The notes under the pieces: model-generated
Told to the model about the DNA's origin: nothing
The model's input: only the letters and a program-made list of their open reading frames with translations
The model's database searches: none
Made by a program: the position numbers and the translations under genes
In this document: piece after piece, positions 45,764 through 46,810 of the stretch
How positions within the stretch are numbered: position 1 is the first letter of the stretch
How the letters are laid out: the number at the start of each line of letters is the position of its first letter
IMG/VR virus record: IMGVR_UViG_2728369393_000007
DNA: 64,000 bases
Strand: one strand, 5' to 3'
Origin: a virus
Lineage: Duplodnaviria > Heunggongvirae > Uroviricota > Caudoviricetes

Positions 45764-45964
45764 TTAACTGGATAGTTCTTTTTCAGCTGCTGCTTCAGCA
45801 TAGCAACGTGCAAATTCAAGAACTTCATCACCTGTTCTTTTTATTGCGTCGTTGTCTGACATTTGTAATACGATAACTGCGCATAATAAATTATGGATAT
45901 TGTTTGCAAAGGAATCCGGTGCCAGGCATAAGCCTTCATACTTATCATGGATATTGCCAGTCAT
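45764..45964 (-). CDS. small protein paralogous to the N-terminal domain of the upstream dual-HTH protein
   Basis: AAGGAG RBS 8 nt before ATG; ATGA overlap with upstream stop; shares …LL.AV…G.DVLEF…YA.A.A pattern. Confidence 0.45.
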   Translation of the reverse strand: MTGNIHDKYEGLCLAPDSFANNIHNLLCAVIVLQMSDNDAIKRTGDEVLEFARCYAEAAAEKELSS

Positions 45965-46662
45965 TGTTGCTGCTCCTTTGCTTCTGATTTTCCCGTTAAC
46001 AACCACATCAGGTCACAATTAAGCGCACTGGCCAGTGGTACTATATGATCAGCAGGAACTTCACAGATGCCGCATTCCCAGTCGTTTATGGGGTCACTGT
46101 AGGTATGAATCATGCGGGCAAGATCAGATTCGGTTAATCCCAGCTTTGTACGGGCGCTTTTGATGCGTGCGCCAATACTTTCCGCATGGACTTCAGTCGT
46201 ATTTACACGAATAGCTGACTCGCTGTTTTTTTCACTTAGTAGAGAAAGCGGATCGCATCCCAGGACGTTTGCCAGGGGGATAAGCATGCTGATGGTTGGC
46301 TCGAACTCTCCACTCTCCCATTGCAGAATAATCTCTTCGTCAAGATCGAGTAGTCTGGCTAGTTCGGTAGTCGTCAAGCCGCAGGCTTCACGTTTGGTGC
46401 GTATGCAGGCTATCTTGTTGCCTGATCGGATAGAATGTTGTTGTTTTGTCGATGCGATCGCTAAAGCATATTCATGAGTAAATTCTAGCACATCAAACCC
46501 AACCTCTTTTAATCGCGTATCATCTAGGAGGTTGAAGGTGCGAACAGCACTGAGCAGGTTTGCGATGGTTAATGCAAAAGAATCGAGATCTAAATCATCA
46601 CATAAAACCTTGTTGTAAGTATTGAGGCTACATGTTTTTGGTGTTGTTTGTAAGGCTTCCAT
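45961..46662 (-). CDS. DNA-binding protein with two XRE-type HTH domains and an unknown N-terminal domain
   Basis: Two HTH blocks (…CGLTTTELARLLDLDEEIILQWESGE… and …LGLTESDLARMIHTYSDPINDWECG…); sits directly downstream of cI on the same strand. Confidence 0.6.
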   Translation of the reverse strand: MEALQTTPKTCSLNTYNKVLCDDLDLDSFALTIANLLSAVRTFNLLDDTRLKEVGFDVLEFTHEYALAIASTKQQHSIRSGNKIACIRTKREACGLTTTELARLLDLDEEIILQWESGEFEPTISMLIPLANVLGCDPLSLLSEKNSESAIRVNTTEVHAESIGARIKSARTKLGLTESDLARMIHTYSDPINDWECGICEVPADHIVPLASALNCDLMWLLTGKSEAKEQQQ

Positions 46663-46810
46663 ATCATCACCATGCAATTCTAAGTTGAAGTTAATCAATA
46701 TATAATTGATGGTGAGATATTATGTGTCAGGAAAACGACTGTCAATTAAAAATTGATAAACTTGATTTTTTTTGTGATGGATGACCAATAATTTAATTTA
46801 AAATCAATAA

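Follow-up and report, generated by a model that had tools for sequence, protein, structure and literature searches.

In Bacillus subtilis, SinR forms a heterodimer with SinI through homologous helical pairs, and this abolishes DNA binding by SinR (PMC3163267). In this study, we describe a pair of phage genes whose products resemble this design, found in a stretch of 64,000 nucleotides (IMG/VR virus record IMGVR_UViG_2728369393_000007, Caudoviricetes) that we refer to, at its full length, as the window. Directly after the gene for a cI-type repressor, and in the same orientation, the window carries a large gene for a 233-aa protein with two XRE-type helix-turn-helix (HTH) domains, followed by a small gene for a 66-aa protein that resembles the N-terminal domain of the larger one. 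Very probably, the two are the leading genes of a cI-repressed early-left (pL-type) operon in a long-tailed lambdoid Shiga toxin 2 (Stx2) prophage that lacks N. Taken as a whole, our reading is that the pair comprises an early-left operon regulator and a hairpin-only mimic that alters the oligomeric state of this regulator, and we hold it tentatively, at slightly less than an even chance. Its mimic step, in which the small protein pairs with the hairpin of the large one or competes for the partner of that hairpin, is drawn by analogy and, considered separately, is possible but doubtful.

The place just past the repressor gene is well known from other lambdoid phages. Lambda rexA and rexB, co-oriented with cI and directly downstream of it as the present pair is, are carried on the cI (pRM) transcript and expressed in lysogens. 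Phages 434 and P22 exemplify lambdoid phages without rex genes, in which the repressor gene is followed at once by oL/pL. The pair described here shares with lambda N, P22 gene 24 and HK022 nun the first position past the repressor, behind a repressor-controlled leftward promoter, as well as a 5' part of the gene that travels with the immunity cassette. The likeness does not extend to homology, because the first product here is an HTH DNA-binder and not an arginine-rich RNA-binding antiterminator, and an antitermination role for it is not indicated. The features of the pair are as follows.

45961 to 46662, minus strand: large gene, 233 aa (MEALQ...), encoding hairpin, linker, HTH1, linker and HTH2 (open reading frame (ORF), Pfam, phrog_4836, AlphaFold)
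46453 to 46587, minus strand: two-helix hairpin of the large protein (type-A N-domain), codons 26-70, paralogous to the small protein (alignment, AlphaFold, hidden Markov model (HMM))
46240 to 46410, minus strand: first XRE-type HTH domain (HTH1), codons 85-141 (Pfam, PDB sequence comparison, AlphaFold)
45994 to 46176, minus strand: second XRE-type HTH domain (HTH2), codons 163-223 (Pfam, PDB sequence comparison, AlphaFold)
45973 to 45978, minus strand: AAGGAG ribosome-binding site of the small gene, within the 3' end of the large gene and 8 nt upstream of the small one
45764 to 45964, minus strand: small gene, 66 aa (MTGNIH...), hairpin only (ORF, alignment, phrog_4587, AlphaFold, ratio of nonsynonymous to synonymous substitution rates (dN/dS))

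A preliminary description of the window had reported a gene pair directly after cI with ATGA coupling and a strong ribosome-binding site, and all three hold, the ATG of the small gene (45962-45964) overlapping the TGA of the large one (45961-45963). The large ORF has an alternative TTG start (45961-46698, 245 aa). We take the ATG at 46662 as its start, because a Shine-Dalgarno-like sequence, GGTG(A), lies upstream of it and the TTG lies inside an operator-like palindrome. The following features flank the pair on the cI side.

46663 to 46810, minus strand: spacer from the cI stop to the large-gene ATG, 148 bp (112 bp to the TTG), an oL/pL-like control region
46717 to 46745, minus strand: sigma-70 promoter-like site facing the large gene, TTGACA at 46745-46740, 17 nt, TAATAT at 46722-46717
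46742 to 46756, no strand: exact palindrome TCAATTAAAAATTGA, operator-like, overlapping the -35 hexamer
46695 to 46709, no strand: exact palindrome TCAATATATAATTGA, operator-like, just downstream of the -10 hexamer
46811 to 47500, minus strand: cI-type repressor, HTH_3 and Peptidase_S24, 229 aa from the ATG at 47500 (Pfam; "phage repressor protein CI" in LC567830)
47501 to 47632, no strand: cI-cro intergenic region, oR-like, with three ATCAAG half-sites
47633 to 47890, plus strand: Cro-like gene with a YdaS/Cro-type HTH (ORF list, Pfam)

The start of cI is itself ambiguous: the ORF reaches an ATG at 47530 (239 aa), GenBank relatives use the ATG at 47500 (229 aa), and the choice alters the length of the cI-cro operator region.

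To what extent the spacer behaves as a control region can be judged from its sequence and from that of its relatives. The promoter-like site agrees with the consensus at ten of 12 positions (TTGACA-17-TAATAT), and the only two exact palindromes of the form TCAAT-N5-ATTGA in the 64-kb window bracket this promoter. The densest ATCAA[GT] clusters in the window lie in the spacer (five in 150 nt) and in the cI-cro region (four in the 150 nt from 47540), with a background of 0.2, and the two regions have AAATCAAGTT[A/T]AT in common. A third cluster, with four sites in 150 nt at about 31490-31640, falls within a gene for a minor tail protein in the neighbouring prophage, probably by chance.

We compared 83 related loci, 80 of them on IMG/VR contigs and the others in three Stx phages from GenBank. 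The spacer resembles the cI-cro operator region of the same phage in eight immunity types. The spacer of every other immunity type examined contains a promoter-like site, matching the consensus at 9-11 of 12 positions in the E. coli types and at only 7-8 of 12 in two distant relatives, loci L089 and L086; in a related immunity variant, L021, the promoter is conserved and the flanking sequence has diverged. The shared words differ from type to type. In L024 the 13-mer CTATAGCGATTGA occurs both in the spacer and in the repressor-cro region of the same phage; in L033 one region has ATCGGAAAGCCGAT and the other ATCGATAAACCGAT; in L089 both contain TACAATA[C/G]TTCATTGTA, matching at 16 of 17 positions (TACAATAGTTCATTGTA and TACAATACTTCATTGTA); and in L086 both contain the 13-mer AAAATCACTTTGG. 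Counts of exact words shared by cI-cro region and spacer proved too noisy in AT-rich DNA, and we used instead a matrix of best 17-mer matches with a permutation test. In this matrix own-type matches exceed cross-type ones, and only two of 720 permutations reach the observed own-type sum. Across these immunity types the large protein keeps an HTH core of at least 85-90% identity, so that it is cI, and not the HTH protein, with which the operators vary. In L021, L033 and L089, a terminator (a GC hairpin followed by a T-run) comes straight after the repressor gene.

No N gene is annotated in phage LC567830, which is 99.9% identical, and because the phage lacks N, the pair occupies the first pL position. 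The oL/pL-type layout of the spacer likewise puts the pair in the first early-left positions, where it should be repressed in a lysogen, and the leftward string of genes continues through small conserved ORFs and an SPFH lipoprotein to xis and int with no evident break. As a control region of this type intervenes, a location directly downstream of cI does not imply expression in lysogens, and on the evidence of the sequence the two genes are most likely early lytic regulators and not lysogen-expressed genes.

The large protein matches Pfam HTH_3 (PF01381) with 57 bits against a cutoff of 23, in two stretches (about residues 87-138 and 160-228), in agreement with the two XRE-type domains reported earlier; with its profile score above the gathering score, it belongs to the XRE/Cro-C1 HTH group. 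Among PDB sequence matches, HTH2 resembles the DNA-binding domains of 434 cI and P22 C2 (E 2e-6). The AlphaFold model places the hairpin helices at residues 26-45 and 49 to about 70, followed by a disordered linker, HTH1 (85-141), a linker and HTH2 (163-223), with a mean predicted local distance difference test score (pLDDT) of 65.8 for the chain and 70-89 for its domains. Judged by its domains, the large protein is a sequence-specific DNA-binding protein. We scanned the left arm from 42700 to 45800 for a palindromic target of the invariant HTH core and found nothing convincing. The protein belongs to phrog_4836 (E 2.4e-92), and databases name the two proteins only as "helix-turn-helix domain-containing protein" and "hypothetical protein". 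Among Stx phages, an atypical "Clade VIII CI" has been reported that has two HTH_3 domains and no peptidase domain, its function being unexplored (PMC8951638). The domain content is that of our large protein, and the two may be one family; here, however, a canonical S24-type cI adjoins the large protein, which is therefore not the cI.

The small ORF encodes a real protein, because it is under purifying selection: comparisons of the gene in the window with variants 54-60% identical to it gave dN/dS values of 0.16-0.31, with dS saturated. AlphaFold models the product as a confident hairpin (helices 16-34 and 39-65, pLDDT 84.6). It belongs to both phrog_4587 (E 3.7e-36) and phrog_5451 (E 1.7e-18), two PHROG families without known function, and the domain either stands alone in a 66-aa protein or makes up the C-terminal half of one of 121-127 aa (phrog_5451). 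A Foldseek search of the PDB with the small-protein model returned nothing below E = 1, the matches being generic helical hairpins (Rop-like, ribosomal L29). The family is narrow, with 11 matches at E ≤ 1e-3 when phmmer was run against 1.84 billion representative proteins. Neither a scan with the small family nor one with the large-protein alignment found true relatives among GTDB species representatives; two matches of the latter scan proved to be distant XRE-type HTH matches in unrelated metagenome-assembled genomes. On these sequence searches, the family appears to be confined to prophages of the E. coli group plus a few metagenomic relatives.

The relationship between the small protein and the N-terminal domain of the large one is supported by several comparisons. 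Small-protein residues 17-60 align with large-protein residues 27-70 at 21 of 44 positions (48%; 36.6 bits, E 5e-9), which confirms the resemblance claimed in the preliminary description and roughly the place it gave: the match was expected at residues of about 40-110 and is found at 39-82 when the large protein is numbered from its TTG. In an hhalign comparison, the type-A N-domain family matches the small family with a probability of 96.6% (E 5.6e-10) over all 63 columns, and the PHROG families of the large and small proteins cross-match. An HMM built from 41 small-domain sequences gives type-A N-domains 45-47 bits, compared with a maximum of 9.2 for 1340 shuffled controls, and types C and D 19-25 bits. 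Of the residues that are invariant in the small family, the type-A N-domain retains nearly all, and AlphaFold models both the small protein and the N-terminal region of the large one as two-helix hairpins. In the distant metagenomic relative L089, the N-domain is 30% identical to the small protein encoded downstream of it (E 5e-5). Homology to the small protein thus spans types A, C and D and L089, at 19-47 bits. Neither a lack of significant similarity between the two proteins nor identity of the larger with a known second repressor independent of any partner was found, either of which would have told against the preliminary description.

A two-helix hairpin on its own has a hydrophobic face that as a rule must be covered by a partner, typically in a four-helix bundle. 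For this reason the N-domain is most likely an oligomerisation or interaction module, and the small protein most likely a mimic of it. We propose that once cI is inactivated or absent, the strong promoter that lies 50-80 bp ahead of the large gene would fire, bracketed as it is by putative operators of the phage's own immunity type through which cI presumably represses it. The first product would be a DNA-binding protein whose N-terminal hairpin, a predicted oligomerisation or interaction module, is followed, across flexible linkers, by two HTH domains of the XRE type; the second, a hairpin-only paralogue, would be made from the same mRNA by translational coupling. Hetero-association of the two could then change the oligomeric state of the large protein, and with it the avidity of its DNA binding or its stability. 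This mimic role of the small protein is plausible on sequences and structural models.

The resemblance to SinR and SinI (and to SlrR and SlrA, also in B. subtilis) lies in two points: a regulator that joins an XRE-type HTH of the 434 cI/Cro kind to a helical-pair domain, in our case as modelled, and an adjacent small protein homologous only to that helical-pair domain. The differences are several. The hairpin is N-terminal here and C-terminal in SinR; each chain has two HTH domains here (one or four in relatives); the small gene is downstream and translationally coupled, whereas sinI lies upstream with its own regulated promoter; and the context is a phage early-left operon, with an interaction that is predicted. 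Neither protein matches Pfam SinI at E ≤ 1 or belongs to that family, and the resemblance is an analogy of design, not family membership.

The organization of the related loci shows how far the two genes stay together. A gene of the small family lies downstream of the HTH gene in 80 of the 83 loci, at -4 to +5 nt from the HTH-gene stop in about 40 of them and 107-203 nt away in about 30. The large protein hardly changes in its C-terminal HTH part, but its first approximately 85 residues come in at least eight types that look unrelated (A/A', B, C, D, E, F, G and H). In the sampled loci, a given N-domain type is accompanied by a single cI type, so that the N-domain travels with the immunity cassette: types A and A' accompany a cI 93-99% identical to that of the window, and cI is about 32% identical with type E, about 37% with type D and about 22% with type C, with no detectable match for type B. 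The recombination junction is the linker before HTH1, the DNA match ending at about base 700 of the query. The number of HTH domains per chain is one (136-182 aa), two or, in L086, four, and the sequences of the one-HTH forms suggest recombination between HTH1 and the end of HTH2 (LGCDPMWLLTG). The HTH regulator family also shows several alternative C-terminal tails.

A number of these and other observations weigh against a regulator with a cognate mimic in an early-left operon. There is no co-variation between small type and N-domain type: one 66-aa protein (95-100% identical) is found behind large proteins with type B and type E N-domains, and the same A' N-domain occurs with small variants only 54-60% identical to that of the window. 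With the HMM described above, types B, E, F, G and H score at most 1.2 bits and have no detectable similarity to the small domain. Gaps of 100-1500 nt or other ORFs separate the two genes in some loci, and in a few the small gene lies farther off, with inserted ORFs. The antagonist would be co-translated with its target, unlike SinI, whose gene has its own regulated promoter. As for the control region, we detected no terminator in the spacer of this phage, so that weak read-through from the cI promoter is possible in lysogens, and for the immunity type of the window itself the match between spacer and cI-cro region consists of short half-sites plus one common 13-mer, with no full palindromes in common. 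The titration of one domain by its mimic, as the preliminary description proposed, therefore keeps its structural plausibility (hairpins, paralogy and the case of L089) and is weakened where the small gene lies beside non-homologous N-domains (types B, E, F, G and H).

The explanation that gains most from these observations is that the two proteins are paralogues with independent functions, the hairpin being a generic, shufflable element, the large protein regulating alone and the small protein having another partner in host or phage. Missing co-variation, persistence of the small gene beside five N-domain types unrelated to it, and the separation of the genes in some loci are what independence would lead one to expect, as are the frequent fusion of the small domain to an extra N-terminal domain (phrog_5451) and locus L086, in which the four-HTH protein has no hairpin and the small gene is several genes downstream. 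We nevertheless consider independence rather unlikely, because synteny is near-universal with tight coupling in about half of the loci, because paralogy has been kept in deeply diverged lineages, and because the residues invariant in the small family are nearly all present in the type-A N-domain. In addition, the pairings with types B and E are probably recent recombinants, since their small genes are 95-100% identical to that of the window, and they say little about long-term compatibility.

The modularity of the N-domain can also be read in a stronger sense, with the hairpin as a hypervariable specificity cassette, the multi-HTH protein as an early regulator specific to its immunity type and the small protein as a SinI-like dominant-negative partner, so that the pair would add a second, protein-protein switch to that of cI and Cro in Stx phages without N. 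We regard this as unlikely. If true, the switch could also work in trans between the many co-resident lambdoid prophages of Shiga-toxin-producing E. coli (STEC): a regulator might be inactivated by the small protein of a neighbouring phage and escape as its N-domain diversifies, and induction and Shiga toxin output could be tuned.

It is quite unlikely that the pair serves the establishment of lysogeny in the manner of CII and CIII, with the large protein as activator and the small one as decoy for a protease that recognises the hairpin, such as FtsH. Lambda CIII competitively protects CII, and the two systems have in common an HTH regulator and a small helical protein in a pL operon, which is the location of lambda cIII. 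PHROG labels family 4836 "CII-like regulator" and the homologue in phage ASU11 is annotated "putative CII repressor", and no cII or cIII is recognisable at the usual positions in this phage, where the interval from cro to the replication gene holds only Rha/Ant-like regulators and phrog_1153. The same leftward string includes the SPFH/Band-7 lipoprotein, with its similarity to HflC/HflK. However, these labels are bare annotations, neither protein has detectable homology to CII or CIII families in Pfam or NCBIfam, and the large gene lies left of cI and not right of cro. We identified no candidate activator sites, the similarity to HflK/C is weak (E 3.5e-5, far under the family cutoff), and a role as protease decoy is speculation.

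The preliminary description had instead placed the pair in the rexAB position and considered it a candidate regulatory or exclusion module, co-transcribed with cI and expressed in lysogens. Besides the orientation and position of the genes and the possible read-through into them, this can appeal to a report that genes just left of cI may belong to the cI transcript (PMC12315714). We consider it very unlikely, and find no support for lysogenic expression, in view of the strong operator-bracketed promoter that separates the pair from cI, the operator sharing with the cI-cro region that is specific to each immunity type, the terminators after the repressor gene in three relatives, and a gene string that continues into xis and int like a lambdoid early-left operon. 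The suggestion of an exclusion module fares no better: there is no sequence similarity to RexA or RexB, and scans for exclusion or defence homology gave PADLOC matches to HTH regions only (RmrA, HTH_VI) and none for the small protein. More generally, Pfam, NCBIfam and PADLOC scans of both proteins and their neighbours returned only generic HTH matches and nothing that points to defence, a toxin, CII/CIII or SinI. A type II toxin-antitoxin pair, with an upstream HTH antitoxin and a downstream small toxin, would fit the gene order and the ATGA overlap and finds an echo in weak NCBIfam matches of the HTH regions to HipB, MqsA and PezA-type antitoxins, yet is scarcely credible given that the antitoxin models score 13-43 bits against cutoffs of 60-335 and reflect generic HTH similarity, that the small protein matches no toxin family (Pfam, PADLOC, NCBIfam) and is paralogous to the N-domain of the putative antitoxin itself, and that the pair lies inside a repressor-controlled phage operon.

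The early-left regulator with a hairpin-only mimic is of interest chiefly for the phages in which it is found. The pair would head the early-left operon in phages without N and without recognisable cII or cIII, whose decision between lysis and lysogeny controls Shiga toxin release, and part of their early control could lie, as a testable proposal, with the multi-HTH regulator, its exchangeable hairpin and the hairpin-only paralogue. An XRE regulator with a domain-mimic partner is a known design, of which the pair would be an instance in an uncharacterised and medically relevant phage context. If correct, our reading would extend the SinR/SinI design, in which an antagonist mimics an oligomerisation domain, to phages of Gram-negative hosts. 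The databases and literature that we searched assign no function to either protein; no study of this pair was found, and papers on the regulatory regions of Stx phages do not describe it. RgdR is a different prophage regulator.

The window as a whole is a prophage-in-prophage region of an STEC strain. Up to about base 41400 it matches the lambdoid prophage PPompW (dicA/dicC immunity; ISEc20, nleC, dinI), and the long-tailed Stx2 phage is the second element (41434-64000), starting with the integrase gene at 41434. This arrangement, a PPompW-like element and then an Stx2 phage, agrees with LC567834, and prophage-in-prophage architecture has been described (PMC8112680). The region from 45700 to 46810 is 99.9% identical to LC567834, with the same gene order around it at a constant offset, and equally close (99.9%) to Stx2 phages from O145, O111, O26 and O157 strains. 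By megablast, which scores near-identical DNA alone, it is present in 98 of 5426 complete E. coli genomes; each of the two proteins has matches on more than 1000 contigs, and long-tailed Stx1 and Stx2 prophages of O157, O145, O111, O26 and other STEC carry the pair.

Beyond the pair, the next co-oriented genes of the leftward string are the following.

44806 to 45682, minus strand: the three genes below, taken together
45569 to 45682, minus strand: 37-aa ORF with an AGGAGG ribosome-binding site
45384 to 45566, minus strand: 60-aa phrog_340 protein (PHROG match)
44806 to 45378, minus strand: 190-aa phrog_1515 protein (PHROG match)

The 37-aa ORF encodes MTFIKHKASHKTACLIAQHGKNHMHIACLFLRKAYGR, a protein without a PHROG match whose sequence is conserved in related loci that have diverged (for example MTFLKNKASYKTACLIAQHGDSYLHIANLYLRKAYGR). 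The ORF is annotated in some GenBank records (LC567819, as a coding sequence of 114 nt) and not in LC567830 or LC567834, and its product is probably genuine, a small basic protein encoded in the same operon. To the right of cro, at the usual place of cII, there are two Rha/Ant-like regulator genes (47936-48679 and 48883-49449, both on the plus strand), with approximately 200 nt devoid of ORFs between them (48680-48880). Farther along the leftward string, the SPFH/Band-7 lipoprotein gene (43609-44436, minus strand; Pfam Band_7, E 1e-30) is called a serine protease in GenBank records. Its start overlaps by 4 nt the stop of an upstream gene for a 62-aa membrane protein (44433-44621, minus strand), and the two could be a partner pair in the early-left operon with a possible bearing on FtsH-dependent regulation.

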